Of a DNA stretch of 64,000 bases, positions 5,819 to 21,237 are shown piece by piece. The notes beneath the pieces are model-generated. The model saw nothing but the letters and a program-made list of their open reading frames with translations, made no database searches and was not told the origin of the DNA. Position numbers and translations under genes: made by a program. Position 1 is the first letter of the stretch; each line of letters opens with the position of its first letter. Location: positions 32,001 to 96,000 of the IMG/VR virus record IMGVR_UViG_3300037247_001890. The stretch is one strand, 5' to 3'. This DNA is from a virus.

Positions 5819-6355
5819 ATGAAATTATTTTATATATTTATTTTATCATTATTTATTGGATGCGTCTTAGAACCAGATGTAAAAACTGTATATAAAGACA
5901 GAATAGTAAATGTTGGCATCATTATAGGAGATGTGCCATTAGAATATTCTTATACTAATATGTGGGAAGCTCAATCTTATTGGAAGGATGACTATGGTAT
6001 GTTACTTTGGGTAGTGGCACAAAATTTATCAGATACGAATTGGTATGGTCATCCTGAACTGCGAATTTATACTACTGATGAACCGATGGACGAAGATAGT
6101 TATTTAACTGAATATGATTTAATATCAACAGGGATTGGTGTACTTACTACCGAAATTGGCTACAATTATGTGCCAGTAGATACTGCTGATTTTATTCCGA
6201 GTCCAGGATTCAGGCATTCCCTGACTTTTGCAAGAATCGATTATAGTGCTTTAAAACAATATTATTATGGTTTATGGAGATTTGTACCTGCCAATACCCC
6301 TACTCTATCAAAGATTGCCCCATTAAGTTATGATCAAATAAAATGGCAAGAATAA
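5819..6355 (+). CDS. lipoprotein
   Basis: Signal peptide ending FIGC; SD AGGAG. Confidence 0.7.
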   Translation: MKLFYIFILSLFIGCVLEPDVKTVYKDRIVNVGIIIGDVPLEYSYTNMWEAQSYWKDDYGMLLWVVAQNLSDTNWYGHPELRIYTTDEPMDEDSYLTEYDLISTGIGVLTTEIGYNYVPVDTADFIPSPGFRHSLTFARIDYSALKQYYYGLWRFVPANTPTLSKIAPLSYDQIKWQE

Positions 6356-6363
6356 TAACCCTA

Positions 6364-6847
6364 TAAATAAGAAAGCACGCTGCAGTCGGCTAGACTGCGT
6401 AACCCGTTGTAACTTATTTATTATGGGTAGAAAAGCACGTTGTGACCGTACTCTAGGAAATGTAATCCGTTGTAATCTATCCATCCTACAGACAGAAAGC
6501 ACGCTGTGATCCAATAACAATCCATTGGATTGTTAATAACCGGGTTCACCCGGGTGATTGCGTAACCCGTTGTAACTGTTTGTAGAAAATAGTAGAGAAG
6601 CACGCTGTAACTCGAGGTCTGTTAGGGCCGCGAGGTCCATAAGGGCCGCGAGGTCCATAGGGGCCGAGTTGGGTTATGTAACCCGTTGTAATCTACCAGG
6701 GTGGAAAGCACGTTGTAATGCCCTTTAGAAGACATACGCGTAATCCGTGTACTCCACCCATTTAAGTTGTGCGGGAAAGCTCGTTATGATCTACGCGAAT
6801 GATTGTACATTCTAGAACATGTAATCCGAGTGACTACCGCAATTAAA
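6364..6847 (+). repeat. six-unit structured RNA array
   Basis: Six copies of RAAGCWCGYT...GTAAYCCG(T)WGT, each with its own closing stem and a variable insert. Confidence 0.85.
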
Positions 6848-7078
6848 GTAAGGAGATTTAATATAGCATCAATAATGTGGGAAGCTGGTGGATTTGGAAA
6901 ACCAAAAATTCGCAGATTTCTGCAAGAGTGCAAATATGAAAATTTTATAACAGAATGGTCAGAGACAAAAATTAGCATTTTCACAAGCACTTTTGAGATT
7001 AATGGAGAAGAAGAAAAATTAGAATTTATGAGTGAATATTTGAGGAAGCAATGCAATCCAGAAAACCAGGCAAAATAG
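6803..7078 (+). CDS. hypothetical protein (start uncertain, probably after 6850)
   Basis: ORF track; SD AAGGAG near 6850. Confidence 0.45.
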   Translation: MYILEHVIRVTTAIKVRRFNIASIMWEAGGFGKPKIRRFLQECKYENFITEWSETKISIFTSTFEINGEEEKLEFMSEYLRKQCNPENQAK

Positions 7079-7500
7079 TAAGGAATAATCTCTATATACA
7101 CAGGGATTATCTTGACACAACAGAAATTCCGGAATATCTTTACACTACTCGATATGATCGAATGATAGGAAAAAATATGCCAGGAGTAGATATTTTAAAA
7201 CATGATCGAACTCACGGTACAGTATCTTTAATTAAATGCTTTGACTTCGATGGAGAAGATGAACCAATCATACAAATGGTATCGACAAGACTAAAAGAAA
7301 TAAATTACACTCGGCCAACAGGTCCAATATATCATCATAAATGGATGATGGTAGGAGATGACTATATGGGATTCAACATTGACGCCAGTAAGCAGCGTAG
7401 TGAACGAATTAAGCAAATAATGCGGGAAAATCCCGGCATTGCACCATATCTAATAGGTAATCAAGTCTATTGGAAAGCTAGAGTTTTACCCTTACTGTAA
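7051..7500 (+). CDS. hypothetical phage protein
   Basis: 149 aa containing IYHHKWMMVGDDY. Confidence 0.7.
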   Translation: MQSRKPGKIVRNNLYIHRDYLDTTEIPEYLYTTRYDRMIGKNMPGVDILKHDRTHGTVSLIKCFDFDGEDEPIIQMVSTRLKEINYTRPTGPIYHHKWMMVGDDYMGFNIDASKQRSERIKQIMRENPGIAPYLIGNQVYWKARVLPLL

Positions 7501-7504
7501 TAAC

Positions 7505-7580
7505 TGGCCGGTGGTGAAGCTTGGTCAAACACAGCGGGCCTTGGACCCGTTATTCGTAGGTTCAAATCCTACCCGGCTAA
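7505..7580 (+). tRNA. tRNA-Gln(TTG), C33
   Basis: Cloverleaf; loop CC-TTG-GA. Confidence 0.92.
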
Positions 7581-7623
7581 CGCAAGACCTAATAAAATTA
7601 ACCAAGAAACAGAGGAAAGAAAG

Positions 7624-8013
7624 ATGAAAAGGATTTATTATTTATACGATGAGGGCAATCAGCCTATCGTCACTGTGGGTATTTTTAAAGATGAAAAAGG
7701 ATTTTCTTTTGCACGCACACTGTCTATTTATGGAGAAGGCGAAACCCTCCCACTGAATAAAGGACAAGCACGTAATATCGTAGATTCTCGTTTTGAGAAT
7801 GCTGCAAGTATTCTGGATAGATCAACATATACCAATGAAATCTATCCTCGACGTGTAAAAAATTTATTTTGTCGTTTAATATCTATAAAAAACAACAATA
7901 GATGCGTCAATGATCTCTTTGGGAATGCTGAAAAATCACTCCTTAAGATTGATTTAAACGCCGAACCAACTGATTTCGAAAAATATCTGCTTAGGATTGA
8001 TGCAAAAAAGTAA
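7624..8013 (+). CDS. hypothetical protein
   Basis: ORF with SD GAGG. Confidence 0.65.
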   Translation: MKRIYYLYDEGNQPIVTVGIFKDEKGFSFARTLSIYGEGETLPLNKGQARNIVDSRFENAASILDRSTYTNEIYPRRVKNLFCRLISIKNNNRCVNDLFGNAEKSLLKIDLNAEPTDFEKYLLRIDAKK

Positions 8014-8057
8014 TCAAGTAGCCTTGTGGTGAAAATTACAGGGCTACTTATATTCTT

Positions 8058-8134
8058 CCGCCCGTATCTCCTCCGTCTGATAAGCGGTAGAAAGAGTAGT
8101 CGGTTACAGATTGGTTCAATTCCAATAGGGCGGA
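8058..8134 (+). tRNA. atypical tRNA-Ile(GAT)-like RNA with displaced D-arm
   Basis: Acceptor CCGCCC/GGGCGG; anticodon arm CCGT-CTGATAA-GCGG; T-arm ATTGG-TTCAATT-CCAAT; no D-arm before the anticodon arm. Confidence 0.7.
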
Positions 8135-8135
8135 C

Positions 8136-8357
8136 ATGAAAGCAAAATTTATACAAGAAAACGTAATATTGAGTGAACATGAGGGCCCTTATGGATTGGA
8201 TCCTCACGATGACTGGACGGACACAGTAATAGAAGAATATCGTAAAAAATATTCAAATGGAAGAATATTTACTTCTACCAAAGAAAGCAGAATTCGCAAG
8301 GTGGGTGATTGGGCTCAATATTATTATATAATAGGCAAGGCAAAAGATGCGAGTTAA
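8136..8357 (+). CDS. small hypothetical protein abutting tRNA 3' end
   Basis: Starts MKAKFI. Confidence 0.6.
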   Translation: MKAKFIQENVILSEHEGPYGLDPHDDWTDTVIEEYRKKYSNGRIFTSTKESRIRKVGDWAQYYYIIGKAKDAS

Positions 8358-8574
8358 AATTACTAATTTTACGACATTGATGCAAAATGACAAGACATAT
8401 AATATTCAACAAAGATATTTCTTTAAGGCAACTTTAAGGTATGATGGCGGTTATGTTTATCGTTGTAAAGACGGCCACAGGTTTTATTTGTTTGCCTTAG
8501 ATCAAGCAGATTTAATTCATATAGGAATTTTAGGAAAGTTATATGGTACGGAAGAAAACAAGGTGGCATTATGA
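8347..8574 (+). CDS. small hypothetical protein
   Basis: Overlapping ORF chain. Confidence 0.55.
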   Translation: MRVKITNFTTLMQNDKTYNIQQRYFFKATLRYDGGYVYRCKDGHRFYLFALDQADLIHIGILGKLYGTEENKVAL

Positions 8575-8807
8575 TAAAAATTTATAAAATATGGATGGAA
8601 GGATATGCAGCTACCGGTGAAAAGAGTACCGCACAGTATGTTGGATCTGTAAAAGCTAAATCCTTCAAAGAAGCTTGCATAAAATTTTCCAAAACAAAAG
8701 AGGGAATAGAGAAACAATGGGATGAATTTTTTGAACCACAAAATCTTTCGTTCTGGGGATGCAAACTATTTGATAACGAAATAGATGCTCGTAGAGCATT
8801 TGGATAA
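8571..8807 (+). CDS. small hypothetical phage protein
   Basis: ATGA overlap; WMEGYAATG...WGCKLFDNE. Confidence 0.65.
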   Translation: MIKIYKIWMEGYAATGEKSTAQYVGSVKAKSFKEACIKFSKTKEGIEKQWDEFFEPQNLSFWGCKLFDNEIDARRAFG

Positions 8808-8814
8808 TGTTTAA

Positions 8815-8888
8815 TGGCCCGTAGTTCAGCCTGGTAGAACGGCACACTCATAATGTGAGAATCGATGGTTCAAATCCATTCGGGCCAA
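8815..8888 (+). tRNA. tRNA with CAT anticodon (elongator Met or Ile2)
   Basis: Cloverleaf; loop CT-CAT-AA. Confidence 0.9.
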
Positions 8889-8890
8889 CT

Positions 8891-9118
8891 ATGAAAGTTA
8901 GAATATTACCATCGGTGTTAGGCACTACTTGGAGGGGCGATTTTGATTCGTTTGGACTTCCAAAACGAATACTCAACACATCAAACAAATACTGGAAACA
9001 TATAGGATTGTATGATTTAACCATAGAAAAACTTGCCGAATTGGCGAACAGCAGTGACAAGAAAAAAGGTTTCAAGACCTACAGAGATTTTAAACAATCT
9101 GGGTTTACTAAAAAATAA
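8891..9118 (+). CDS. small hypothetical protein abutting tRNA
   Basis: ATG 3 nt after the discriminator. Confidence 0.55.
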   Translation: MKVRILPSVLGTTWRGDFDSFGLPKRILNTSNKYWKHIGLYDLTIEKLAELANSSDKKKGFKTYRDFKQSGFTKK

Positions 9119-9458
9119 ATCAATATTGGATTATGGCTGTGGAAAATCCATAGACTATATTCACATAGCAGATATGGATCGATTTGATCCTTATTTCTAT
9201 CCGGAAATAAAAAATAAAAAATATGAAGTTATTCTTTGTCATTATGTTATAAATGTAGTTAGCAAAGAAGAACAAAAACAAATAATAGAACATATTAAGA
9301 GCCTTCTGGCACCAGGAGGAAAAGCTTACTTCACAGTAAGGAGAGACATAAAAGAAGACATCCATTATAAAGACTATTCTCAAAGAGTTGTATATCTACC
9401 TTTTAAAACAATAAAAAAACACGCGGACTTTGAAATTTATGAATGGAGTGAGAGATGA
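9033..9458 (+). CDS. class I SAM-dependent methyltransferase
   Basis: ILDYGCG motif I; LCHYVINVV; LAPGG; start uncertain. Confidence 0.8.
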   Translation: MPNWRTAVTRKKVSRPTEILNNLGLLKNKSILDYGCGKSIDYIHIADMDRFDPYFYPEIKNKKYEVILCHYVINVVSKEEQKQIIEHIKSLLAPGGKAYFTVRRDIKEDIHYKDYSQRVVYLPFKTIKKHADFEIYEWSER

Positions 9459-9643
9459 ACAAAATTAAAGAACTTTGTATGAAGTTTAATAGGTTTTGGG
9501 ATGCTATTCCGGAACCTAAGCGTTTTATATATTTTGTAATAGCCGCTGCTTTTTGGTCCTGGGCACTATTATTAGAACCATTTGTGGCCATATTTATCGC
9601 AGCAATAGCATTATACATACGTTTCCAACGTTACGATACATAA
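9455..9643 (+). CDS. small membrane protein
   Basis: Two hydrophobic segments. Confidence 0.6.
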   Translation: MNKIKELCMKFNRFWDAIPEPKRFIYFVIAAAFWSWALLLEPFVAIFIAAIALYIRFQRYDT

Positions 9644-9652
9644 TGAATCAAC

Positions 9653-9728
9653 GGGGTATTAGAATAGTCCGGTTCAATTCGCCACCCTGTCAAGGTGGAA
9701 AACATGGGTTCAAATCCCGTATGCCCCG
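9653..9728 (+). tRNA. tRNA-Asp(GTC)
   Basis: Cloverleaf. Confidence 0.93.
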
Positions 9729-9730
9729 CT

Positions 9731-9946
9731 ATGAAAACAACATTTATAAAAGAAAACATTTTATGTACTCTAACAAGAGCAGAGATAGGATATCTAAATT
9801 ATCTTCTAAAAACCTATGACGAAACAGATCTTGAAAAAGGTGAGTATATTTTACAAGTAATGAAAGAAAATAATTATTTTTATAAAATTGATGGTATACA
9901 TTATCAAGTATTAAAAATCAAAGGAGACTTAGAAGAAAAATTATGA
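9731..9946 (+). CDS. small hypothetical protein abutting tRNA
   Basis: Starts MKTTFIKEN. Confidence 0.55.
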   Translation: MKTTFIKENILCTLTRAEIGYLNYLLKTYDETDLEKGEYILQVMKENNYFYKIDGIHYQVLKIKGDLEEKL

Positions 9947-10103
9947 AAGTAGTATGTATTGATGTTAGCATCGATTCAACAAATGATAGAAAAGAAACCT
10001 TGGACGAAATAAAACGCCGGCTCCAGGAATGCTTGAAAGACATGAAGGGGGCTAAATTAATTAAGAGATATAAAAATGTTTACATTAGTATGTGGGAATT
10101 AAT

Positions 10104-10304
10104 ATGAAACAAAAAAAAGCAAAAATAGTTTGTGGGAATGTATTAGCAGACATTTCAAAAGAAAAATTAGGAAAAATAATCGAGGAAGTAGTGCAAGAAG
10201 GTATGGATTCTTTAGACAAAACTTTAGAAAAATTTAATACCTTGGTATTTTTAGATTATGCCGGTAAACATGAATCTCGATATGTAGAAATTAGGAGGGT
10301 CTGA
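10104..10304 (+). CDS. small hypothetical protein (stop lies inside tRNA-Ser)
   Basis: ORF track; start reassigned. Confidence 0.5.
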   Translation: MKQKKAKIVCGNVLADISKEKLGKIIEEVVQEGMDSLDKTLEKFNTLVFLDYAGKHESRYVEIRRV

Positions 10305-10384
10305 CCTCATCGGCTGCGGGGCCTGGTCCTGAAAACCAGTGGCCGTCGCAAGGCGGTTTCAGAGTTCGAATCTCTGACCCTCTT
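10294..10384 (+). tRNA. tRNA-Ser(TGA), C33, atypical D-arm
   Basis: Long variable arm; loop CC-TGA-AA; T-arm CAGAG-TTCGAAT-CTCTG. Confidence 0.8.
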
Positions 10385-10386
10385 CA

Positions 10387-10566
10387 ATGAAAGTACAAAT
10401 AAAAACAACAATGTGGATTATCGAAAGAAATCCAAATATATCAAATGCAAGTTATGAGCTTCCAATAACATTAATTTTTAGAAGACATGAAAATCATTTA
10501 GGGTGGATCGACATAACCAATTTGATGGATGCAAAAGAAATATTTTTAACAGAAGGGCATAAATGA
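10387..10566 (+). CDS. small hypothetical protein abutting tRNA
   Basis: MKVQIKTT..., 59 aa, ATGA-coupled to the next gene. Confidence 0.5.
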   Translation: MKVQIKTTMWIIERNPNISNASYELPITLIFRRHENHLGWIDITNLMDAKEIFLTEGHK

Positions 10567-11087
10567 AAGCAACTGGATACCAGTTAAGAGAAGCACTACG
10601 CCACTGGCGTAGTGTATTAGAAGGTCTTGCTATTGACCTAAAAGGATCTTTATATTACTTTGATCAGAAAGAAAAAATTAATCCTTTAACAGTAGCAGAA
10701 GACTACAGGGCAGCAGAAGATGCTGTATCAAGGATTGAAGAAGCACAACAAAAATATAATCTGCGTATAAATTTAACAATCGCAGATGAACCACAAACTC
10801 TGACTTATGCAATCAAAGCATTAGGAATGGCCGGTCGCTATGCTGCGATTTGGAAAGCAGTGGCAAGTGATAAACAAAGTGCTCGCGGATGGGGCGGCGA
10901 TAGATTAGAACGTGTAAGAAATAAAGATGATGTTCATGCGAAAAGATCTATCAGTAAAGAAGCGGCATCAAAGATGCGTACTGCTGCAAACAAGCATGCA
11001 TCTGATTTGAGACAAGCAATTGCATTAGCCAATGCAAGTAAACTAGAAATAGACATTCCTGAAAACCTGATTAATTTCGGGCGATAG
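10563..11087 (+). CDS. helical coiled-coil protein (DIP1984-like resemblance)
   Basis: LREALRHW N-terminus; helical pattern ending IALANASKLEI; family assignment from memory only. Confidence 0.55.
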   Translation: MKATGYQLREALRHWRSVLEGLAIDLKGSLYYFDQKEKINPLTVAEDYRAAEDAVSRIEEAQQKYNLRINLTIADEPQTLTYAIKALGMAGRYAAIWKAVASDKQSARGWGGDRLERVRNKDDVHAKRSISKEAASKMRTAANKHASDLRQAIALANASKLEIDIPENLINFGR

Positions 11088-11096
11088 GGAATGCCG

Positions 11097-11259
11097 AAGA
11101 GGCGGTGACCGTATCTGTTTGGTATTACAACCTGGCAGGGGAACTATGAAGGCTGGAAATTGCTAGAAGCTTAAAGCCTATACCAATACTTACCATAGGC
11201 AAGTACTCAAATCCACTTCAAGTATAACCATAGCTATTAGCTGTATACTGCCTCTTTTT
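11097..11259 (+). ncRNA. orphan structured RNA downstream of the coiled-coil gene
   Basis: Closed by AAGAGGCGGT/ACTGCCTCTT plus T-run. Confidence 0.5.
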
Positions 11260-11264
11260 AACTT

Positions 11265-11472
11265 AATTAACGCCGGCATAAACGTAACTCCGTGGTGAAG
11301 CTTCCTGAGGCGGGGTGTAGTGAGCTCCTCCAAGATACCGTCGAGGGTCAAATCTGGGATCTACACAGTCCCCAGCTAAGTCCCCTAAAGAGGTTTGTAT
11401 TCTAGAGGTGAGAGCTGTCTGTGATGAATACAAGCGTGAAATATCGGAAAAAGGAATACTCCGGCGTTAATT
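11265..11472 (+). ncRNA. orphan structured RNA, about 200 nt
   Basis: Perfect 12-bp closing stem AATTAACGCCGG/CCGGCGTTAATT; GC-rich; non-coding. Confidence 0.6.
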
Positions 11473-11476
11473 TTAT

Positions 11477-11562
11477 GGGGATATGGTGAAATGGCAGACA
11501 CATGGGACTTAAGATCCCATGGGGGAGACCCCGTGAAGGTTCAAGTCCTTCTATCCCCACCA
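11477..11562 (+). tRNA. tRNA-Leu(TAA)
   Basis: Class II cloverleaf with encoded CCA. Confidence 0.95.
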
Positions 11563-11786
11563 TGAAAAGCGTAAAATTTGTAAAACAATCAGTTCTCGTA
11601 AAAAAGAACAAAATAGAAGATGCTATGAATACTATAGCCCATGCACTGAAAACCGATCCTAGCTATAGAATAGGATGGTATGCGAATTTAACATTTAATA
11701 TATATGATAACAGCAAAGGTAGAATAAGCCAAGATACAGCGGGTAACATAGCAGACGTAATATTAAGAAACTTTTTTAAAGCTTAG
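11562..11786 (+). CDS. small hypothetical protein
   Basis: ATG shares the A of the tRNA CCA; stop overlaps G1 of the next tRNA. Confidence 0.6.
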   Translation: MKSVKFVKQSVLVKKNKIEDAMNTIAHALKTDPSYRIGWYANLTFNIYDNSKGRISQDTAGNIADVILRNFFKA

Positions 11787-11870
11787 GGCAAGTGGCGAAA
11801 GTGGCAAACGCGTTGTCTTCAAAAGGCAATCCTACAAAATAGGGTGTAGGTTCAAGTCCTACCTTGCCTA
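11786..11870 (+). tRNA. tRNA-Leu(CAA)
   Basis: Class II cloverleaf. Confidence 0.92.
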
Positions 11871-11872
11871 CT

Positions 11873-12085
11873 ATGAAAAAAAGAACTGTCAACATGTCAG
11901 AAGAAGTTGTGTTTGACGACATAACAGAAAAAGTCGAGACAGAAAAAATAATTGGAGATCTCACAAAAAAGTGGAAAAATAAAGACTTTTCGATAAAAGT
12001 TTATTTTAATAAAAGAATTACTAAAATACAGAACGCGGCTAGTCAAGGTACAATAGACTTTATCAGAGCTTACAAACCAAAATAA
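11873..12085 (+). CDS. small hypothetical protein abutting tRNA
   Basis: Starts MKKRTVN. Confidence 0.55.
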   Translation: MKKRTVNMSEEVVFDDITEKVETEKIIGDLTKKWKNKDFSIKVYFNKRITKIQNAASQGTIDFIRAYKPK

Positions 12086-12086
12086 A

Positions 12087-12155
12087 CGGGCTGCTCAGGA
12101 CAAGCAAGGTTCGATTCCTTCTCCAAGACGTTGGAGCCTCGGTGGGGGCAGCCGG
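12087..12155 (+). ncRNA. minimal circularly permuted tRNA-like (YrlA-like) RNA
   Basis: Order: stem GGCTGCTC, T-arm AAGG-TTCGATT-CCTT, capped acceptor-like hairpin CTCCAA-GACG-TTGGAG, D-like loop, stem GGGCAGCC. Confidence 0.6.
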
Positions 12156-12158
12156 TAT

Positions 12159-12242
12159 GCGAGTGTGGCGAAGTTGGTAGACGCGCTAGATTTAGGATCT
12201 AGTGGGGGAAACCCCGGGAAGGTTCAAATCCTTTCACTCGTA
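12159..12242 (+). tRNA. tRNA-Leu(TAG)
   Basis: Class II cloverleaf. Confidence 0.95.
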
Positions 12243-12256
12243 CTATTAGGAGGATT

Positions 12257-12466
12257 ATGAAAGTAAAATTTACAAGCAACCCATACATTAAAGCATCTTG
12301 GCACGAAGCAACTGCCAAGTTAACAAAATTAACTAATGAATATTTGGATGAGGCAGGGAGTAGTGGTGATTTATTAAAAAAAGCAGAAGACGTTCTATAT
12401 AGACTAGGATGGACTTTAGAAGAATATCAAGAATTAAATAGACCGCCAACAAAGCGACATAAATAA
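12257..12466 (+). CDS. small hypothetical protein
   Basis: SD AGGAGG. Confidence 0.65.
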   Translation: MKVKFTSNPYIKASWHEATAKLTKLTNEYLDEAGSSGDLLKKAEDVLYRLGWTLEEYQELNRPPTKRHK

Positions 12467-12467
12467 T

Positions 12468-12540
12468 GGGCCTGTAGCTCAGACGGTAGAGCGATGGACT
12501 GAAAATCCATGCGCCGGTGATTCAACTTCACCTGGGCCCA
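12468..12540 (+). tRNA. tRNA-Phe(GAA)
   Basis: Cloverleaf. Confidence 0.92.
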
Positions 12541-12558
12541 CAAATCATAGGAGATATT

Positions 12559-12792
12559 ATGACAGTAAATTTTATTGAACATAACACATTAAATTGGATA
12601 TTAATCAGAGAAGAAAGAATAGCTAAAAAAAGTGGTAGTTTTAGTGGTACTACTTACACAGATCCGCACGTTATTCTTAAAAGATCAATAACTCTTGATG
12701 AGTCCACAACTGCTATGGATGGAGCCGAAACAAAGAGATATTCACCTGGAATATATCGAGCAACAAAAAAGGAAGGATGGCAGAGAGGCTAA
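12559..12792 (+). CDS. small hypothetical protein (stop inside tRNA-Ser)
   Basis: SD AGGAG; ATG 12559. Confidence 0.55.
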   Translation: MTVNFIEHNTLNWILIREERIAKKSGSFSGTTYTDPHVILKRSITLDESTTAMDGAETKRYSPGIYRATKKEGWQRG

Positions 12793-12854
12793 TTGCAACG
12801 GTTTGCTAAATCGTCGTCCTCCGGGACACGTGGGTTCGAATCCCACTCCTTCCT
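12771..12854 (+). tRNA. tRNA-Ser(GCT)
   Basis: Class II cloverleaf. Confidence 0.93.
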
Positions 12855-12878
12855 CACTAAAAATGGCATAAGATAAAT

Positions 12879-13073
12879 ATGATAACGTTAAAGGAATACT
12901 TTAAAGAATTAAAGATCATAGAAAAAAGTCTCAATAAATCAAAAGATCCGGCTAATACATATGCCTGGGTCTGTGCTTTGGAGTCAAAACTTCATTCACT
13001 TGACAGTTTTTTAGATAACCAAAAAAATATTTACTACAAAGCAATGGTAAGAAACAAATTAGATAAAACATAA
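12879..13073 (+). CDS. small hypothetical protein
   Basis: ORF track. Confidence 0.55.
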   Translation: MITLKEYFKELKIIEKSLNKSKDPANTYAWVCALESKLHSLDSFLDNQKNIYYKAMVRNKLDKT

Positions 13074-13418
13074 TCTTCGATTCGTGGCTCATAGTTTCTG
13101 TGGTAGTAATTAGATACGATCCATAAATTAACTACACTCGGGAGCGTCCAGTTCTATGGTGAAAACCCCATAACCAATGAATAGCTGTGGGTCATTGAAA
13201 CGAGAATGCGGGTGGAGAATCGGGAGTCCCGCCAGAACATGAGAGGAAACTCAGGACATCACTGCTAACGGTGGGAGAATTAAGTGTTGCAGCACTTAAA
13301 TCCAATACCACTTAGGATGCGACTCAAAATAGCTTAGAGGGAAAGCAGCTCTATAATAGCAAGGTAGAGGCCAATAGACAGATCACGAAATAATACAGAA
13401 TCCTGGTTATAAGAAGAT
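13073..13418 (+). ncRNA. rnpB: RNase P RNA, reduced S-domain and enlarged P3
   Basis: CR-I GAGGAAACTCAGGAC (13243-13257); CR-V ACAGAATCCTGGTTAT; P1 ATCTTC/GAAGAT; P2 TTCGTGG/TCACGAA; GGATGCGACTCAAAATA. Confidence 0.85.
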
Positions 13419-13427
13419 AAACGCGCG

Positions 13428-13531
13428 ACACGTCGTTCAGGGGACTAGGCATGTGTTGTTGGGCAGGCCATATGTTTGAATTTTCCGGATAGACCAACAG
13501 CCGGAAAAAGAGAGACTGTCCCCCGACGTGT
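13428..13531 (+). ncRNA. orphan multibranch RNA
   Basis: ACACGTCG/CGACGTGT and GGGGGAC/GTCCCCC stems enclosing two hairpins. Confidence 0.55.
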
Positions 13532-13542
13532 ACTTAAAAATA

Positions 13543-13571
13543 TTGACAAACAGCAGTAGATGTTGTAAATT
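13543..13571 (+). promoter_or_regulatory. sigma70-like promoter TTGACA-17-TAAATT
   Basis: Consensus -35. Confidence 0.7.
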
Positions 13572-13596
13572 ACATAATATTTTAGGAGGTATTGAA

Positions 13597-14214
13597 ATGA
13601 AGAACGTAATTATATATTGTTTAGTAATGGCATGGCTTATTACCGCTGGTTGGTACACGGGGTATGTGATAAAAATAGAAGGCCAGTTGAAGTTTGCCGA
13701 ACGAAAATCCTTGTACCATGAAAAAATGCATGAAACCTATGAAAATGAATCAAAGGAACTTTATACTAAAGTAACCAAAATCAAATCATACATTGATGAT
13801 CTTTACCATGGGCAATCGTATTTGGTGACTTTGACAGGATATCATCCGGTAGTGGAACAATGTGACAGTACTCCCGACATTACAGCAGATGGGACTAAAA
13901 TTATCGTTGATCGAGCACGTAATTATCGTATAGCAGCATTAAGCAGAGATATGCTAAAACGATGGGGAGGCCCATTTAAATATGGGGATCTGATCCTAGT
14001 AAAAGGCACAAGAGACGGAGTGTACGATGGCATTTATCAAATTAGAGATACAATGCATCAAAGACATGAAAATTGGATAGATGTATTACTAACGCCTGGA
14101 GACAAGTCAACAAAACAGGATAACATTTTAATCTACAAACTCGAAGATGATTATCAGGGTATTTTCACCTTTTATAAAAATTATTCGGATGAATTTTATA
14201 GTTTATTAAATTAA
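13597..14214 (+). CDS. membrane-anchored 3D-domain (MltA-like) cell-wall protein
   Basis: N-terminal TM; VTLTGY...CDSTPDITADG...ALSRD...DTM...WIDVL; SD AGGAGG. Confidence 0.8.
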   Translation: MKNVIIYCLVMAWLITAGWYTGYVIKIEGQLKFAERKSLYHEKMHETYENESKELYTKVTKIKSYIDDLYHGQSYLVTLTGYHPVVEQCDSTPDITADGTKIIVDRARNYRIAALSRDMLKRWGGPFKYGDLILVKGTRDGVYDGIYQIRDTMHQRHENWIDVLLTPGDKSTKQDNILIYKLEDDYQGIFTFYKNYSDEFYSLLN

Positions 14215-14222
14215 ACTCATAA

Positions 14223-14295
14223 CGCGGGGTGGTAGCAGTGGTAGCTCGCCTGGCTCATAACCAGGAGGTCGCCGGTTCAAATCCGGCCCCCGCTA
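14223..14295 (+). tRNA. initiator-type tRNA-Met(CAT)
   Basis: C1:T72 mismatch; CGCGGGG 5' end. Confidence 0.92.
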
Positions 14296-14304
14296 CAATT
14301 ATAT

Positions 14305-14376
14305 CGCGCGGTAGGGCAGTGGTAGCCCGGGAGACTCATAACCTCCAGGTCGCCGGTTCAAATCCGGCCCGCGCTA
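14305..14376 (+). tRNA. second initiator-type tRNA-Met(CAT)
   Basis: C1:T72 mismatch; paralogue of the preceding gene. Confidence 0.9.
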
Positions 14377-14472
14377 CTACATAGAAAGGAGGAGACAGGA
14401 CGCCTAGCGACCTGTGTAGTGCACCTCTTCCTTTCTTAGATTTCACATTTCACATTTAACCAATAAAAAATT

Positions 14473-14712
14473 ATGGGCTTTGCAACATGTGAATACACTG
14501 GAGACACCGCTACAAGTGGATCCGTAAGAATTCATATTCCAGAAACAATTAATGCAACTACAGAGTCAGACGATAGTACATGGCTTAAACCAAAAGGGGT
14601 ATTCGAAAGGGTCTGTAAAAAATGCGGATCACCTTTTGATTCACTAAAAAGAAAAGCACAGGTATGTCTAGAGTGCAAACAAGAGAAAAAGCAAGTAGCA
14701 ACGGGTCGGTAG
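14473..14712 (+). CDS. small Zn-finger protein (stop inside tRNA-His)
   Basis: CKKC...CLEC. Confidence 0.6.
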   Translation: MGFATCEYTGDTATSGSVRIHIPETINATTESDDSTWLKPKGVFERVCKKCGSPFDSLKRKAQVCLECKQEKKQVATGR

Positions 14713-14775
14713 TGTTAGTGGTAGCACGCGAGATTGTGGCTCTCGTAGGGCGGGATTCGAATTCCTCACGACCCT
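14703..14775 (+). tRNA. tRNA-His(GTG)
   Basis: Anticodon arm CGAGA-TTGTGGC-TCTCG; imperfect T and acceptor stems. Confidence 0.85.
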
Positions 14776-14792
14776 CAACGGAGGTTTAAGAG

Positions 14793-15041
14793 ATGAAGAT
14801 CCATATTTCAAAAGGCACCGGCATTAATAGATTAAGTAGAAGAATTAAACTAAAACCGGATACAAAAGAAGTGATCAGAGGACAATTAAGAGAAAATAAG
14901 ATCTTAAGAATGGATATTCAAGAAAATGGTAAATATGCTGCCGATGCTAATGACTTCTACGCAGATGTATTTTTTATATTTAATTTTCCACAAAGAAAAA
15001 TTCATAAAGCGTTAAAAGATTTTATAGGTCCCTTCGTCTAG
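14793..15041 (+). CDS. small hypothetical protein (stop inside tRNA-Glu)
   Basis: SD GGAGGT. Confidence 0.6.
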   Translation: MKIHISKGTGINRLSRRIKLKPDTKEVIRGQLRENKILRMDIQENGKYAADANDFYADVFFIFNFPQRKIHKALKDFIGPFV

Positions 15042-15101
15042 CTTGGTTAGGACCCCGGCCCTTCAAGCCGATAACGGTGGGTTCGAATCCCCCAGGGATC
15101 A
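15027..15101 (+). tRNA. tRNA-Glu(TTC), C33
   Basis: Cloverleaf; loop CC-TTC-AA. Confidence 0.9.
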
Positions 15102-15103
15102 CT

Positions 15104-15289
15104 ATGAAAACACGTATAGTAAACAAGAATGCTTTAAGAGAAGAAGGCGATGATCACGCCTGGACAGATGATCATCCTATAGTCATAGGAAAAATAGGAA
15201 CGGGCGCTTATTTTCCAATTACTTCTGGATCAGCTTTTATTACGCTTGAAGTATATTTATTCTATAAGGATTTTAAAAATGCAAGCTAA
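15104..15289 (+). CDS. small hypothetical protein (HAWTDD motif)
   Basis: ATG 3 nt after the tRNA. Confidence 0.55.
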   Translation: MKTRIVNKNALREEGDDHAWTDDHPIVIGKIGTGAYFPITSGSAFITLEVYLFYKDFKNAS

Positions 15290-15497
15290 TATTTTTCCAG
15301 GCTCAATAATATCAACAACAATAATGTGGGTGAGTATTACTCAAGCTGAAACAAGATTTTGGCCAGAGCACAGAAAACGCATAGGAGATATTATAGTAAC
15401 ATTTTCTAAGGATCATGCCACGACTACTTATAATGCAGAGGTAATAATAACAGATGAAACATGTGAATATTATTCGGGCAGCCAGATTAGTCCTTAA
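15279..15497 (+). CDS. small hypothetical protein
   Basis: SD AAGGA; ATG 15279. Confidence 0.5.
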   Translation: MQANIFPGSIISTTIMWVSITQAETRFWPEHRKRIGDIIVTFSKDHATTTYNAEVIITDETCEYYSGSQISP

Positions 15498-15672
15498 AGG
15501 CGGCCTTGATGTAACGCCAGAAGAAGAATTATATGGCATAATGATAGGCAAAGGGCTATACTATGAAGAAACTTTTGATGAAGATGGTATAGGCCATGCC
15601 TGGACAGATGACATCTACTTAGTTGATGATGAATATGAACCAGACTTTAACGCGCCCATAGCCAAGTGGTAA
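15454..15672 (+). CDS. small acidic protein (HAWTDD motif; stop inside tRNA-Trp)
   Basis: ORF track. Confidence 0.55.
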   Translation: MKHVNIIRAARLVLKGGLDVTPEEELYGIMIGKGLYYEETFDEDGIGHAWTDDIYLVDDEYEPDFNAPIAKW

Positions 15673-15723
15673 GGCACTGGCCTCCAAAACCAGCATTCCA
15701 AAGTTCGAATCTTTGTGGGCGTG
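15652..15723 (+). tRNA. tRNA-Trp(CCA)
   Basis: Cloverleaf. Confidence 0.92.
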
Positions 15724-15741
15724 CAAAAAGGAGAGGATATT

Positions 15742-16017
15742 ATGAAAGTCAAGTTTAGAGATAACCACTTAATATTCAGAACCTCAGTAGAAAAATTGAT
15801 ATACATCATCATGTCAGTAGCAACAAGAGATGGCGATGAGGAAGAAGCCATAGAAATACTACAAACTATGGGATGGACCGGCGAAGAACTTACAAGATTT
15901 GATAATGAATGGGCTGAATATTCGGAAAATTTAGAAATAGAAATAGGAAATGAGGCTGAATTATATAAAGAAGTAAAAAAGCGTATAAATCTTGAACAAT
16001 ATTGGTGTATGAAATAA
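15742..16017 (+). CDS. small hypothetical protein
   Basis: SD GAGG; ATG 15742. Confidence 0.6.
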   Translation: MKVKFRDNHLIFRTSVEKLIYIIMSVATRDGDEEEAIEILQTMGWTGEELTRFDNEWAEYSENLEIEIGNEAELYKEVKKRINLEQYWCMK

Positions 16018-16019
16018 AA

Positions 16020-16093
16020 GCCCCGGTAGCTCAACTGGATAGAGCAACGCCCTTCTAAGGCGTAGGTTTGGGATTCAAATTCCTGGCGGGGTA
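16020..16093 (+). tRNA. tRNA-Arg(TCT)
   Basis: Cloverleaf. Confidence 0.92.
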
Positions 16094-16111
16094 CTAGAAA
16101 GGAGAAAAAAA

Positions 16112-16399
16112 ATGGAAGACGAATATTTATCAATAGAACAATGTGAGCATAATAGTTTATATAAAATAGATGGCCGCAATTTTTCCCTTGGGGTATACAA
16201 TAAAAGAGAACAAGGTTTTGTAGGAATTCGCTTAAAATTCACAACGGAATTTCTTGATCTTGAGTATCATTGGGATACAGGACCTCCTAATGGAACAGTG
16301 AAACCTATTGAACTTCTTGAAAAATGTCCTATGGATGCGAACGATGAGAGCAAGGAATTATTTAAGTGGTTAAAAGAAAGACGCGAATATTATTTATGA
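16112..16399 (+). CDS. hypothetical phage protein
   Basis: SD AAGGAG. Confidence 0.7.
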   Translation: MEDEYLSIEQCEHNSLYKIDGRNFSLGVYNKREQGFVGIRLKFTTEFLDLEYHWDTGPPNGTVKPIELLEKCPMDANDESKELFKWLKERREYYL

Positions 16400-16581
16400 A
16401 AGTTAAAATCGTAACAGGCACAAAAATAGACGAGATCAAACATGAGATTGGCGCAATCAAAAGGATGGATCAAGAAGGAATTATTTGGACACCCGCAGCA
16501 AGGATTCTGAGAAATTGGAAGCTTGCACAAGATATAAAATTCTCTTACTATAGGATATCAAAATGGAACAAGCCCCGTTAG
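16396..16581 (+). CDS. small hypothetical protein (stop inside tRNA-Arg)
   Basis: ATGA overlap; starts MKVKIV. Confidence 0.55.
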   Translation: MKVKIVTGTKIDEIKHEIGAIKRMDQEGIIWTPAARILRNWKLAQDIKFSYYRISKWNKPR

Positions 16582-16645
16582 CTCAGTGGATTAGAGCATC
16601 ACGCTACGGACGTGAGGGTCAAAGGTTCAAATCCTTTACGGGGTT
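16572..16645 (+). tRNA. tRNA-Arg(ACG)
   Basis: Cloverleaf. Confidence 0.93.
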
Positions 16646-16670
16646 CTATAAAAAATAGATAGAAGAAATT

Positions 16671-17123
16671 ATGAAAAAATTAACATACATATTGGCATTC
16701 TTTATTACAAGTTGTATTTTTTGGCCGCCACCAACACAAAAATATTACACTAAAGATGTATGGAAATTTTTTAAGGATGATGCTGTAAATAATGTTGTTG
16801 TACATAAGATGCTCAAATATGATGAGGAAAAAGATGTATCTACTATTAAGTTAAAGTTTATAAACAACAATGATTCATTATATGTATTTATAAAATATCG
16901 ATTGTATATTATTTTTTATGAAGATAAGGAAAGTGAGTTTTATCGTAGAAAAAAAGGGGCTGTCTTGGGAAGTACGGAGAGAGAAGACAAAAATTTTCAC
17001 ATTAAACTTCGGCCTTACGGTTTTGCTATATCAACTGCTACTATGGATAGTATGCGAATAAGAAAAATATCTTTTTATTCGTATGAAGCAAAAAAATGGT
17101 TCAACACATTGCTTATTGAGTGA
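16671..17123 (+). CDS. lipoprotein
   Basis: Lipobox ITSC. Confidence 0.65.
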   Translation: MKKLTYILAFFITSCIFWPPPTQKYYTKDVWKFFKDDAVNNVVVHKMLKYDEEKDVSTIKLKFINNNDSLYVFIKYRLYIIFYEDKESEFYRRKKGAVLGSTEREDKNFHIKLRPYGFAISTATMDSMRIRKISFYSYEAKKWFNTLLIE

Positions 17124-17133
17124 AATCATTAAA

Positions 17134-17205
17134 ACCCCTATAGTCTAGCGATAAGGCGTCCGGCTTACATCCGGAAGATCGGTGGTTCGAATCCATCTGG
17201 GGGTA
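17134..17205 (+). tRNA. tRNA-Val(TAC)
   Basis: Cloverleaf. Confidence 0.88.
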
Positions 17206-17207
17206 CT

Positions 17208-17387
17208 ATGAAGACAAAGATAGTAGAAGCAGAAACTGTAGTTGTAGTAGAGTATCCATATGGTTTAAGAGAAAGAATCGCTATAGAAGATGTTATTTAC
17301 AAAAGATATTTTCAGGATTTTAGAAATAATCAAGAAATGACGCTGCTATATAAATTAGTAGGTTTTGAACAAAGAGAAGATTGGTAA
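17208..17387 (+). CDS. small hypothetical protein abutting tRNA
   Basis: MKTKIVE..., 59 aa. Confidence 0.5.
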   Translation: MKTKIVEAETVVVVEYPYGLRERIAIEDVIYKRYFQDFRNNQEMTLLYKLVGFEQREDW

Positions 17388-17392
17388 TAAAT

Positions 17393-17464
17393 GCCCCCTT
17401 GGTCTAGCGACATGGCGCCCGGGTTACATCCGGGAGAGCGGTGGTTTGAATCCATCAGGGGGCA
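17393..17464 (+). tRNA. tRNA-Val(TAC) variant (G32, TTTGAAT T-loop)
   Basis: Paralogue of 17134-17205. Confidence 0.85.
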
Positions 17465-17469
17465 CACAT

Positions 17470-17549
17470 GGGCTGTGGGACTGCTTTGGGGTGGTCACCT
17501 CGCTTGCACCGAGGACATCAGCAGGGTTCGAATCCCTGACGGTCCACCA
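17470..17549 (+). tRNA. tRNA-Ala(TGC)
   Basis: G3:U70; encoded CCA. Confidence 0.93.
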
Positions 17550-17644
17550 CACGTGGTAGATTAACGAGAACTGGATGATGCCAGTAATGAGATCGCTGTA
17601 ACCTTCAGGGGTGCAGAAATGAGGTTCGAGTCCTCTCCGCGTGG
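17550..17644 (+). tRNA. atypical tRNA-like RNA, apparent TCA anticodon, D-loop insertion
   Basis: Acceptor CACGTGG/CCGCGTG; T-arm GAGG-TTCGAGT-CCTC; extended anticodon arm with loop CT-TCA-GG. Confidence 0.55.
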
Positions 17645-17661
17645 CCTTATAAAACAAAATA

Positions 17662-17781
17662 TGGACTCTTGTGATCAGTGTTGGTTCGACCCCAACCTCT
17701 CGGCTTATAAACCAGTGTAAAAGGATGGCATGAAGCGTAAGAGTGATCTTATAGTGACGGATGTTCTGTAACAAGAGTCCA
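17662..17781 (+). ncRNA. T-arm-containing orphan RNA
   Basis: Closing stem TGGACTCTTGT/ACAAGAGTCCA; GTTGG-TTCGACC-CCAAC T-arm. Confidence 0.6.
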
Positions 17782-17805
17782 CTTTTCATAGAAAAAGGAA
17801 AATTT

Positions 17806-18081
17806 ATGCTAGATGGTAATTATTATTTTGAATGTATTTGTGGCTGTGATGAGCACACTATAAGATTTACACTAGATAAAGAAGAAAAAGAAATTTACAC
17901 TTCGATATTCTTGGCTAGCCATCGGAACTTTTTCATACGAATTTGGCTGGGAATCAAGTATATTTTCGGTGGAAAAAGTCGGTATGGGCAATTTGGTAAT
18001 TGGTCATTAAATGTGCATGATGCCAATAGATTGGAAGACATGTTAAATATGCTAAAGGAGTTTAAAGATGGGACCTCATAA
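17806..18081 (+). CDS. hypothetical phage protein
   Basis: FECICGCDEH; SD AAGGA. Confidence 0.65.
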   Translation: MLDGNYYFECICGCDEHTIRFTLDKEEKEIYTSIFLASHRNFFIRIWLGIKYIFGGKSRYGQFGNWSLNVHDANRLEDMLNMLKEFKDGTS

Positions 18082-19174
18082 AATATATGCAGAATATGCA
18101 GAAGGCGCTGCTTTAGATCAATTTTATGAAGCAATGAAACATGATACCGTTGTGCAAGGTGCTTTAATGCCTGACGCGCACAAAGGTTATTCATTGCCAA
18201 TAGGGGCTGTGATAGCAATGAAGGATGTTATATGGCCTGCCGCAGTAGGATACGATATTGGATGCGGTATGTGTGCTATGCCTACTTCATTTGAGAAAGC
18301 CCATGTGGAAGCACAAAAAGATCTTATTTTTGATAGGATATATGAACAAATTCCTGTTGGATTTAACTGGAACAAAAAGCGTGTTAATTTTCATGTGACA
18401 GGTGAACTAGAAAAAGAACCAATTACTCCCCATTTTAAAAAAATCTATAATGAAAGAGGAGTATTACAAATCGGTTCTCTTGGTGGAGGTAATCACTTCA
18501 TCGAAATAGGTTATGATGAAACAGATAAGGTCTGGATTATAATTCATTCCGGATCCAGAAATCTTGGACATAATATTGCCACTTATTACATGAAACTTGC
18601 ATCTGGTGATGGCAAAGCACGAGAAGGTTATTATGTATTGGATTTTCAAGGTATAGATGGCGCGAATTATGTGACAGATCTTAATTTTGCATTAGAATTT
18701 GCCTTGTTAAATCGTGGTGAAATAATAAAAAGAGTAGAAAAAATATTAAGTAAAGTTGCTAAAGGCCATGGTAACTGGGATGGGTTAATCAATCGCAATC
18801 ATAATCATGCTGAATTGAAAGATGGGCTATGGATACATCGCAAAGGTGCAACACATGCCGAAAAAGGTATGGAGGGAGTTATTCCTGGAAATATGCGTGA
18901 TGGTTCTTTTATTGTGAAAGGTAAAGGAGATCCTGAATCATTAAATTCCTCGGCACATGGTGCTGGTCGAGTATTAGGACGTCGTGCCGCTAAAGAAACC
19001 TTAAAGATGGAAGATTTTAAAAAATCCATGAAGGGAATTAAGGCAAAAGTAGGCACAGATACTATAGATGAATCTCCAGGTGCATATAAAAATATTTTTG
19101 ATGTGATGGAACAACAGAAAGATTTAGTCGAAGTCATGCATCATGTTAAACCTATTATTAATATAAAAGGATAA
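18068..19174 (+). CDS. rtcB: RtcB 3'-5' RNA ligase
   Basis: MPDAHKG, GYDIGCG, GSLGGGNHFIE, HSGSR, HN, HRKGAT, PGNM, SAHGAGR, DESP. Confidence 0.97.
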   Translation: MGPHKIYAEYAEGAALDQFYEAMKHDTVVQGALMPDAHKGYSLPIGAVIAMKDVIWPAAVGYDIGCGMCAMPTSFEKAHVEAQKDLIFDRIYEQIPVGFNWNKKRVNFHVTGELEKEPITPHFKKIYNERGVLQIGSLGGGNHFIEIGYDETDKVWIIIHSGSRNLGHNIATYYMKLASGDGKAREGYYVLDFQGIDGANYVTDLNFALEFALLNRGEIIKRVEKILSKVAKGHGNWDGLINRNHNHAELKDGLWIHRKGATHAEKGMEGVIPGNMRDGSFIVKGKGDPESLNSSAHGAGRVLGRRAAKETLKMEDFKKSMKGIKAKVGTDTIDESPGAYKNIFDVMEQQKDLVEVMHHVKPIINIKG

Positions 19175-19176
19175 TA

Positions 19177-19479
19177 ATGAGTAACTTTAAAAAACCGGAT
19201 TTTGATCCATTCGGTAAAAAGAAAGAAGACTATATTCGTGATTATGGTCGTTTTTCAATAGCAAAAATCCATAGCGTTCATGAAGATTTAGGTTTAGTTA
19301 TTGGTGAATTAGATGAAAATGTTATGGGTGCCATTCCCATTAATTGGTTTACGAAAGTTAAAAAAAATACTTGGAGACCAAACGGACTAGCATGTCCTTA
19401 TATCTATATGGATGATTTTCGTCAGCTAGCAATTGATACGTATAATACAATTAAAGATCAAATAAAGGATCGCGTATGA
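19177..19479 (+). CDS. hypothetical protein
   Basis: Operon context. Confidence 0.65.
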   Translation: MSNFKKPDFDPFGKKKEDYIRDYGRFSIAKIHSVHEDLGLVIGELDENVMGAIPINWFTKVKKNTWRPNGLACPYIYMDDFRQLAIDTYNTIKDQIKDRV

Positions 19480-20390
19480 TAGACAAAGAATTTAAAGTCT
19501 TAGACAAAGGATTTATACGTCTTGTGGACTATATGGGTTCTGACCAGGCTATAGTTCAAGCGGCCCGTGTTTCATATGGCAAGGGTACAAAAACGAAACG
19601 TGAAGACGAAGGACTTATTCGGTATCTCATGAGACATAGACACACGACACCCTTTGAGCAATGTGAACTAAAATTCCATGTTAAAGTACCCATGGATTGC
19701 TGGCGACAATGGATACGGCATCGCACAGCCAGTGTAAATGAATATTCTACTAGGTATTCAGAAGCTATTGACGACAAACAAGAAACCAGTGAATTTGACT
19801 GGCGCAAACAAGATACAACAAAAAATACACAGGGCAGTAGTGGCCTTTATCTTCCTGCTGAAGAAATAGGCGATGATGGACATCCCAGTGCAATTGGTAA
19901 GTGGCACACTATTCAGGAAAGAGCATTGCATAAAACAGCAGAAACAGTCTATAAAAATAGATTAAAAGCTGGTATCGCTCGCGAACAAGCACGTAAAGAT
20001 TTACCTTTGTCGACGTATACTATGGCCTACTGGAAAATTGATTTGCACAATCTGTTTCATTTCTTAGGATTGAGAATGGACAGTCATGCTCAATTAGAAA
20101 TTAGAAAATACGCCAATATCATTGGTTACGAGATTGTGGCAAAGATATTTCCTTTGGCATGGGGCGCATTTCTAGATTATCGATTGAATGCGATGACGTT
20201 GTCAGCAAGAGATATCCATATTATACAGCAAAAAATTATATATGGAGATAAATATCTAGAAAATTCAGATGATTATAATCCTTTTAATTGGTTGGAAAAG
20301 CGTGACGACGGAACATTAAAAGACAATCTCGAGCGGAAGGAATTCGAAGAAAAAGCAAAAGTGTTAGGAATAAAAGTTCCTTGGATATAA
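19476..20390 (+). CDS. thyX: FAD-dependent thymidylate synthase
   Basis: AARVSY; RHRTASVNEYSTRY; REQARKDLP; HAQLEIR. Confidence 0.97.
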   Translation: MIDKEFKVLDKGFIRLVDYMGSDQAIVQAARVSYGKGTKTKREDEGLIRYLMRHRHTTPFEQCELKFHVKVPMDCWRQWIRHRTASVNEYSTRYSEAIDDKQETSEFDWRKQDTTKNTQGSSGLYLPAEEIGDDGHPSAIGKWHTIQERALHKTAETVYKNRLKAGIAREQARKDLPLSTYTMAYWKIDLHNLFHFLGLRMDSHAQLEIRKYANIIGYEIVAKIFPLAWGAFLDYRLNAMTLSARDIHIIQQKIIYGDKYLENSDDYNPFNWLEKRDDGTLKDNLERKEFEEKAKVLGIKVPWI

Positions 20391-20394
20391 CTTC

Positions 20395-20468
20395 GGGTCC
20401 GTAGCTTAGCTGGTGAAGCATCCGCCTTTTAAGCGGAAGAGTGGCAGGTTCAAGTCCTCCCGGGCCTA
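20395..20468 (+). tRNA. tRNA-Lys(TTT)
   Basis: Cloverleaf. Confidence 0.92.
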
Positions 20469-21235: not shown

Positions 21236-21237
21236 CT

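Follow-up and report, generated by a model that had tools for sequence, protein, structure and literature searches.

An RNase P RNA gene of bacterial type A ancestry, cut down to the catalytic domain, in an uncultured phage

RNase P RNA is considered to be a ribozyme universal among cells. The locus described here raises the question of whether a virus can carry such an RNA of its own and, if so, from which class it descends and what it may do with a large part of the molecule missing. The stretch of DNA that was analysed (hereafter the window; 64,000 nucleotides) corresponds to bases 32001–96000 of a 169-kb IMG/VR virus record with a CheckV completeness of 85%, whose source is an uncultured phage from marine sediment. 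The original prediction had placed a phage-encoded RNase P RNA lacking the specificity domain (S-domain) in a gap of this window. Our analysis confirmed that positions 13073–13418 encode an RNase P RNA that descends from bacterial type A and retains only the catalytic domain, and a virus-encoded form gives this universal enzyme a new place.

The RNase P RNA gene and its tRNA island

The window contained 27 tRNA genes, every one on the + strand, extending from 5.7 to 25 kb (5723–25038); one of them, a tRNA-Ser gene, occupies 12771–12855. A tmRNA, an RtcB RNA ligase, and a protein of the phrog_850 family were also located within this tRNA island (Table 1), and together they look like a set of tools for processing and repairing RNA. 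The window further encodes a DNA ligase and showed a weak match to a portal protein. Regarding the phage type, a search with PF07068 (T4 Gp23) returned no match, and its positive control likewise returned none. Among the 25 tRNA genes detected by Rfam in the window, 23 encoded C74 and just one encoded the complete CCA. Many tRNA trailers read CUAUGAAA, which places a start codon directly 3′ of the tRNA, and none of the leaders had G at position −1. Searches of the 85%-complete phage record for RnpA (PF00825) and for a CCA-adding enzyme (PF01743) gave no match.

The RNase P RNA gene occupies the non-coding gap between two ORFs, and A13073 is shared as both its first base and the last base of the upstream stop codon. 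Immediately 3′ of the RNA, a stable branched element was observed at 13428–13531 (+) (MFE −40.5 kcal/mol, z −3.4); none of 200 shuffles was equally stable, the element was kept in a 90–95% identical relative, and it had no Rfam match. A promoter-like TTGACA-17-TAAATT follows this element at 13543–71.

The standard models did not detect the gene. Rfam returned no RNase P match over the window at the gathering threshold, and neither RNase P nor type T at E ≤ 10 on 12850–13620 and on 13236–13420; RF00010 was likewise without a match over the whole 169-kb record. Rfam misses this copy because its P3 insert and missing domains defeat the models. We therefore relied on a covariance model (R1) derived from a MAFFT alignment of 15 compact members of the family described below, with the window left out of the seed, and this model matched the window with 119.2 bits (E 2.5e-30). 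The model search that had been proposed as a check failed with the Rfam models and succeeded with R1.

All elements of the predicted catalytic core, namely P1–P5, the P6 pseudoknot, P15–P17, CR-I, and CR-V, were located where they had been predicted (Table 1), and the R1 match and the covarying helices place this agreement far beyond chance. The long-range helix P4, formed by CR-I (GAGGAAAnUCnGG) and CR-V (ACAGAAnCCnGnUUA) with a bulged U, was present, as the window sequences GAGGAAACUCAGG and ACAGAAUCCUGGUUA can pair in this manner; relative to the E. coli sequence, two of their pairs are altered in a compensated way. The MFE fold of 13088–13243 closed the same P3 helix as the direct reading, while the MFE of the whole RNA was unremarkable (z −0.3).

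Table 1. Positions of the RNase P RNA, its parts, and neighbouring genes in the window
Feature	Position	Strand	Description
Whole RNase P RNA gene	13073-13418	+	346 nt; ends set by P1 pairing; R1 match 13217-13411
P1	13073-13078 with 13413-13418	+	AUCUUC with GAAGAU; direct reading; recovered by MFE fold
P2	13081-13087 with 13383-13389	+	UUCGUGG with UCACGAA; 7 bp; recovered by MFE fold
P3 base	13088-13092 with 13239-13243	+	CUCAU with AUGAG; direct reading; family P3 closes alike
P3 extension	13094-13100 with 13233-13238	+	GUUUCUG with CAGAAC; six pairs; U13097 bulged
P3 insert	13101-13232	+	132 nt, at P3 apex
P3 3′ strand	13233-13243	+	G13243 doubles as first G of CR-I
CR-I	13243-13255	+	GAGGAAACUCAGG
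P4	13248-50 and 13252-55 with 13402-08	+	U13251 bulged
P5	13257-13260 with 13316-13319	+	CAUC with GAUG; alignment helix 5
P6 pseudoknot	13262-13266 with 13344-13348	+	CUGCU with AGCAG (P17 loop)
S-domain-replacing stub	13270-13312	+	43 nt
Stub parts	13270-74 with 13308-12; 13277-13302; 13303-07		Stem; then GA; hypervariable hairpin; 3′ bulge CAAUA
P5/P15 linker	13320-13322	+	CGA, 3 nt
P15-P16-P17 arm	13323-13369	+	P15 = 13323-25 with 13367-69
P16	13332-34 with 13358-60	+	
P17	13335-39 with 13349-53	+	Loop 13340-48
GGU motif	13363-65	+	3′ side of L15 loop
J15/2 junction	13370-13382	+	GCCAAUAGACAGA; 13 nt, single-stranded; equivalent of bacterial J18/2
CR-V	13395-13409	+	ACAGAAUCCUGGUUA; P4 3′ strand 13402-08
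Upstream ORF	12879-13073		64 aa; stop codon ends at 13073
Downstream gene	13598		ATG after Shine-Dalgarno sequence; ORF listing starts at GTG 13528
tmRNA	4251-4596		92 bits; within tRNA island
RtcB RNA ligase	18068-19174 (order as listed)		phrog_1075, E 1e-112; within tRNA island
phrog_850 'RNA-binding protein'	25300-26682 (order as listed)		Within tRNA island

The absence of the S-domain was also borne out. The two strands of P5 were separated by 55 nt (13261–13315) in which CR-II/III are absent; P7–P14 have been replaced by a 43-nt stub, and P18 is absent. A P18-like hairpin was present in a few relatives, unlike the window RNA. The predicted spacing of about 55 nt was therefore accurate, but the 'simple stem' assigned to it was not, as the stub is a conserved module built alike throughout the family, in which a 5-bp stem encloses two purines (GA or AA), a variable hairpin, and a 3′ bulge of 5–7 nt ahead of its closing strand. 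The bulge is GUUAUA in many members, GAUUGCA in others, and CAAUA in the window, and the hairpin is hypervariable, with indels even among close relatives of the window. That the stub contains a T-loop-like motif is only a guess.

One core position departs from the family. G13321 occupies a nearly invariant position: 44 of 46 members carry A there, which corresponds to A248 of E. coli, an equivalence obtained by aligning GCAA to the RF00010 consensus; the same G occurs in one further member, L006. The A248 residue has been reported to affect cleavage (PMC10465520).

Covariation across a family of phage RNAs

Scans of IMG/VR with exact motifs and with a two-block pattern (GAGGAAANTCNGG, a gap of 115–176 nt, then ACAGAANCCNGNTTA) retrieved 49 further loci, mostly on contigs of 50–416 kb. 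The short spacing of the two blocks means that full-length bacterial genes were excluded. An exact-match scan for CR-V yielded mostly chance matches inside coding regions. R1 matched all 50 IMG/VR loci, and the members with well-defined ends were 183–280 nt in length, compared with 346 nt in the window, whose RNA is long only because of its P3 insert.

With few exceptions, these RNAs were embedded in phage tRNA arrays. tRNA genes flanked 38 of the 43 distinct family loci, and in most cases the family RNA lay within the tRNA array and shared its strand, often 0–10 nt from a tRNA gene; a tmRNA was present at several loci. The idea that loss of the S-domain serves the processing of atypical tRNA-like RNAs, which accompanied the original prediction, is not supported, as the family sits in ordinary tRNA arrays. 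Two loci contained a tRNA with the anticodon CUA (L054:2041-2114 (−) and L057:3246-3318 (−); amber suppressor, labelled Pyl by ARAGORN), which hints at stop-codon recoding in these phages.

Relatives of the window RNA link the family to bacterial RNase P RNA. The window RNA missed the RF00010 gathering threshold (100 bits), and its relatives scored 45–107 bits. The 183-nt L002 aligned globally to RF00010 (45 bits, E 6e-13) with just P7–P14 and P18 deleted, its P3 being a 3-bp stem with a tetraloop. L062, L073, L081, and L006 scored 107, 106, 72, and 46 bits, respectively, and the first two pass the curated threshold; the family therefore merges by degrees with the RNAs already recognised as class A. 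Judged by eye against the E. coli sequence, L058:10597-10797 (+) and L073:357-586 (−) seem to retain fragments resembling bacterial P8/P9 and CR-II, and the phage RNAs may span a range of S-domain reduction. In L016:1935-2138 (+), A stands in place of the bulged U of P4 (AACACAGG).

The P4 covariation in homologues on which the original prediction had been staked was observed. Across the 50 loci, P4 covaried at the two positions left free by the search patterns (C-G/G-C/U-A at one and A-U/C-G/G-C at the other), with a single A.C mismatch. Ten helices, including the P4 and P6 pseudoknots, were then evaluated in a MAFFT alignment of the 15 compact members that was not fitted to the structure and excluded the window. 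In this alignment, 95.9% of the cells could pair, compared with 34–45% when the partners were slid by 1–3 columns, and both sides changed in 40 of the 49 pairs. The covariation score was 0.73 versus 0.09–0.15, and none of 500 shuffles reached the observed values. Both sides changed in all nine pairs of P1 (helix 1); P2 was paired throughout the alignment (100%) with six of six pairs covarying, P5 (helix 5) was also 100% paired with three of four, and the P6 pseudoknot (helix 6) was 97% paired with five of five. P15, P16, and P17 (helices 8–10) covaried as well, as did the remaining helices, the stub stem (helix 7) among them. The search patterns themselves account for part of the invariance of CR-I and CR-V. 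Outside the patterns, the GCAAC junction, AG..AU in J15/2, and GGU were also conserved, and the A, the G, and the following AU of J15/2 were invariant in 46 of 46 members. These results show homology to RNase P RNA, with every helix and junction of the catalytic core present and P7–P14 and P18 lost, and they show that the secondary structure is under purifying selection across a large phage family.

A blastn search of the window region, L048, L002, L062, and L073 against 50,697 deposited phage genomes returned no related copy, a result that does not show absence from these genomes because blastn is weak on short divergent RNAs. In the literature, of which subscription journals were covered only in part, we found no description of a virus-encoded RNase P RNA or of a bacterial RNase P RNA without the S-domain, including the minimal form of Gemmataceae described below. 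Most such genes are missed by standard pipelines, which constitutes an annotation gap.

The P3 insert

The insertion of roughly 130 nt predicted in P3 measured 132 nt. It is predicted to be multibranched with 4–5 hairpins, and P3 together with the insert folded no better than shuffled sequence (z +0.2). The insert was intact in contigs of 90–99% identity from four independent marine-sediment studies, and none of them skips it; as the contigs of four independent studies run through it, the insert is not an assembly artefact. In one run, C13175>U was accompanied by G13197>A, so that C-G became U-A and a predicted 5-bp hairpin stayed paired. Between these natural relatives, the insert has diverged by approximately 10% and the core by approximately 3% (10–14 differences per 140 nt versus 2 per 69 nt).

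Outside the lineage of the window, P3 was 3–11 bp long and the insert was absent from all members. An extended-P3 pattern (GAACANNAGAGGAAACTCAGGA) found no occurrence across IMG/VR, and blastn-short of the insert against all collected family loci and the window gave chance matches only. P3 of L046 reached approximately 50 nt. In L052:10970-11810 (−), an HNH homing-endonuclease ORF of approximately 190 aa fills the P3 loop and places the 5′ strands of P1, P2, and P3 approximately 650 nt upstream of the remainder, and the stop codon of this ORF falls within the RNA core (GCUUAAGG). P3 is a permissive insertion site in the family, with L052 carrying a whole HNH endonuclease gene there.

The original prediction had also offered the P3 insertion as a substitute for the S-domain. 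This role is not supported: 49 other members, the closest relative L006 included, do without both, and the insert has no homologue elsewhere; being absent from every other member, the insert is no general S-domain substitute. It is a lineage-specific peripheral expansion and not the family's answer to S-domain loss. The insert could disturb RNA folding. What the window adds to the family is an evolvable insertion site at the P3 apex, a conserved 132-nt insert, and a G at the A248-equivalent position.

Cellular copies, proposed function, and related systems

The same pattern was applied to cellular genomes, with one genome per prokaryotic species, and 18 loci were found, 17 of which matched R1. 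The cultured Achromobacter anxifer LMG 26857 (NZ_CAHLAR010000005.1) carried a mini copy at L096:6077-6294 (+) in an array of approximately 40 tRNA genes within 8 kb, alongside a canonical RNase P RNA of 405 nt, and it represents a tractable experimental system. Both forms also occurred in a MAG of Opitutaceae and in one of Gemmataceae. The mini form was the only one in three further genomes of Gemmataceae (G001, G002, and G014; 221–234 nt, including L086:5910-6124 (−) and L095:4562-4779 (+)), while a full-length RNase P RNA of 376–643 nt was present in 36 of the 41 sampled Gemmataceae genomes. The mini RNAs of G001 and G002 scored 149–156 bits with the phage model, that of G001 aligning end to end at 156 bits, and their genes lay amid ordinary chromosomal housekeeping genes. 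rnpA was kept in all three genomes. This pattern suggests that a mini RNA can do without a second RNase P RNA beside it, and may do so in a bacterial clade, although a canonical copy could still be present in the three mini-only genomes, of which at least G001 and G002 are MAGs.

On the sequence evidence, the phage RNA, a descendant of bacterial type A RNase P RNA that consists of the catalytic domain only, is probably functional and processes the tRNA-rich transcripts of the phage together with host RnpA. The RNA would be transcribed along with the tRNA island, fold into the P1–P4 core, and bind the RnpA protein of the host, a partner assumed to come from the host because the phage record encodes none. 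The resulting enzyme would cleave the 5′ leaders of the 27 phage pre-tRNAs and may also cut the tRNA-punctuated mRNAs around them. Substrates would be recognised via the acceptor stem, the −1/+1 positions, and the 3′ end, with the GGU of L15 meeting C74, and not via the T-loop/D-loop elbow; CCA is the known partner of the GGU motif. The phage would thereby gain processing capacity independent of the host RNase P RNA, and the P3 insert would be a tolerated peripheral addition at a permissive site, perhaps mildly constrained and dispensable for the basic mechanism. The silence of Rfam on the window copy, the unremarkable MFE of the whole RNA, G13321, the scarcity of encoded CCA, the lack of an rnpA match, and a possible disturbance of folding by the insert count against this explanation.

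Some of these points would also fit an RNA that does not cleave at all and acts as a decoy or regulator, soaking up host RnpA or pre-tRNAs and redirecting host tRNA maturation. Any protein partner must be the host's, as the phage record is without rnpA; G occupies the position equivalent to A248 in the window copy; and the RNA has lost the S-domain, which accelerates catalysis in type A RNAs. Such a role is nevertheless improbable, since P4 with its bulged U is maintained by covariation and the invariant ACAGAA and GAGGAAA as well as the P6 pseudoknot are all conserved, and conservation of parts needed only for chemistry or active-site geometry speaks against a mere decoy. Moreover, three bacteria apparently manage with no RNase P RNA other than the mini form. 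It is still harder to regard the window copy as a decaying relic, inactivated by the P3 insert and the A-to-G change within a family that may itself be functional. The insert is indeed unique to its lineage and of no special stability, and Rfam misses the copy carrying this G. However, all helices are intact, including the strands of P1, P2, and P3 parted by the insert, and relatives diverged by 1–10% in four studies keep both insert and core, with the core changing least; no contig of the window lineage has the gene deleted or truncated. In addition, L006 shares the G and, this apart, is a flawless compact member scoring 170 bits, and P3 of L052 tolerates even a 650-nt endonuclease gene.

We consider it least probable of all that the insert has taken over from the S-domain as a new module for substrate recognition, enabling the enzyme to handle atypical tRNA-like RNAs. 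Its retention within the lineage and the compensatory C-G to U-A change in one predicted hairpin would agree with such a module, but the 49 other S-domain-less members, the nearest relative L006 included, manage without it, it evolves several times faster than the core, and its predicted fold is no better than that of shuffled sequence. In solved bacterial holoenzymes, the P3 apex is also directed away from the substrate. A catalytic-domain RNase P RNA working with host RnpA on phage transcripts thus remains the preferred reading. A wider proposal, which we advance tentatively and with some doubt, is that the S-domain-less RNAs are fully competent enzymes in vivo, providing phages with private 5′ processing of tRNAs and mRNAs with host RnpA and serving as the sole RNase P RNA of a small Gemmataceae clade. 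If this were true, the specificity domain would be dispensable for bacterial life, and the P3 insert of the window would represent a peripheral domain in the making, newly added to a minimal ribozyme.

Among known systems, the family resembles bacterial type A RNase P RNA (RF00010; E. coli M1 RNA/rnpB) in P1–P5, P4 with a bulged U, CR-I/CR-V, P6 between J5/7 and the P17 loop, P15–P17 with GGU in L15, the J18/2-type AUAGAnnnAU, the 7-bp P2, and the 3-nt P5/P15 linker. It differs in lacking the S-domain (P7–P14, CR-II/III) and P18 and in its location in phage tRNA arrays. Bacterial type A RNAs are approximately 330–400 nt long, compared with approximately 180–260 nt in the phage family and, owing to the P3 insert, 346 nt in the window. 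The window RNA additionally falls below RF00010 detection and carries G at the position equivalent to A248.

Archaeal type T RNAs of Thermoproteaceae, which work without most of the S-domain, are recognised by a 3-bp P2, a shortened P15, a 2-nt P5/P15 linker, and derivation from archaeal type A (PMC3579882). Type T (RF02357) and the phage RNAs alike keep the catalytic domain, have lost most of the S-domain, and are missed by standard covariance models for the same reason. The window and its relatives, however, match bacterial and not archaeal models, with no type T match in Rfam, and the link to type T drawn in the original prediction does not hold, as P2 has 7 bp and the linker 3 nt in the window, whereas type T has 3 bp and 2 nt, respectively. 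The likeness reflects independent, convergent reduction and not kinship.

The C-domain-only RNase P RNA engineered from E. coli, which cleaves pre-tRNA (PMC5839562), has the same domain content, but it is a laboratory construct of reduced efficiency, whereas the phage RNAs are natural, under selection, and equipped with a conserved stub in place of the S-domain. A widespread natural minimal RNA of bacterial type offers a ready system for studying the role of the S-domain, elbow-free recognition, and the minimal size of a trans-acting ribozyme. The theta (HDV-like) ribozymes are likewise encoded by phages, lie within tRNA loci, and are linked to the maturation of tRNAs (PMC10879173), but they have an unrelated fold and cleave themselves in cis, whereas RNase P is a trans-acting, multiple-turnover 5′ endonuclease. 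With such an enzyme, the autonomy that large phages possess through tRNAs, tmRNA, and RtcB would be extended to the 5′ maturation of tRNA.
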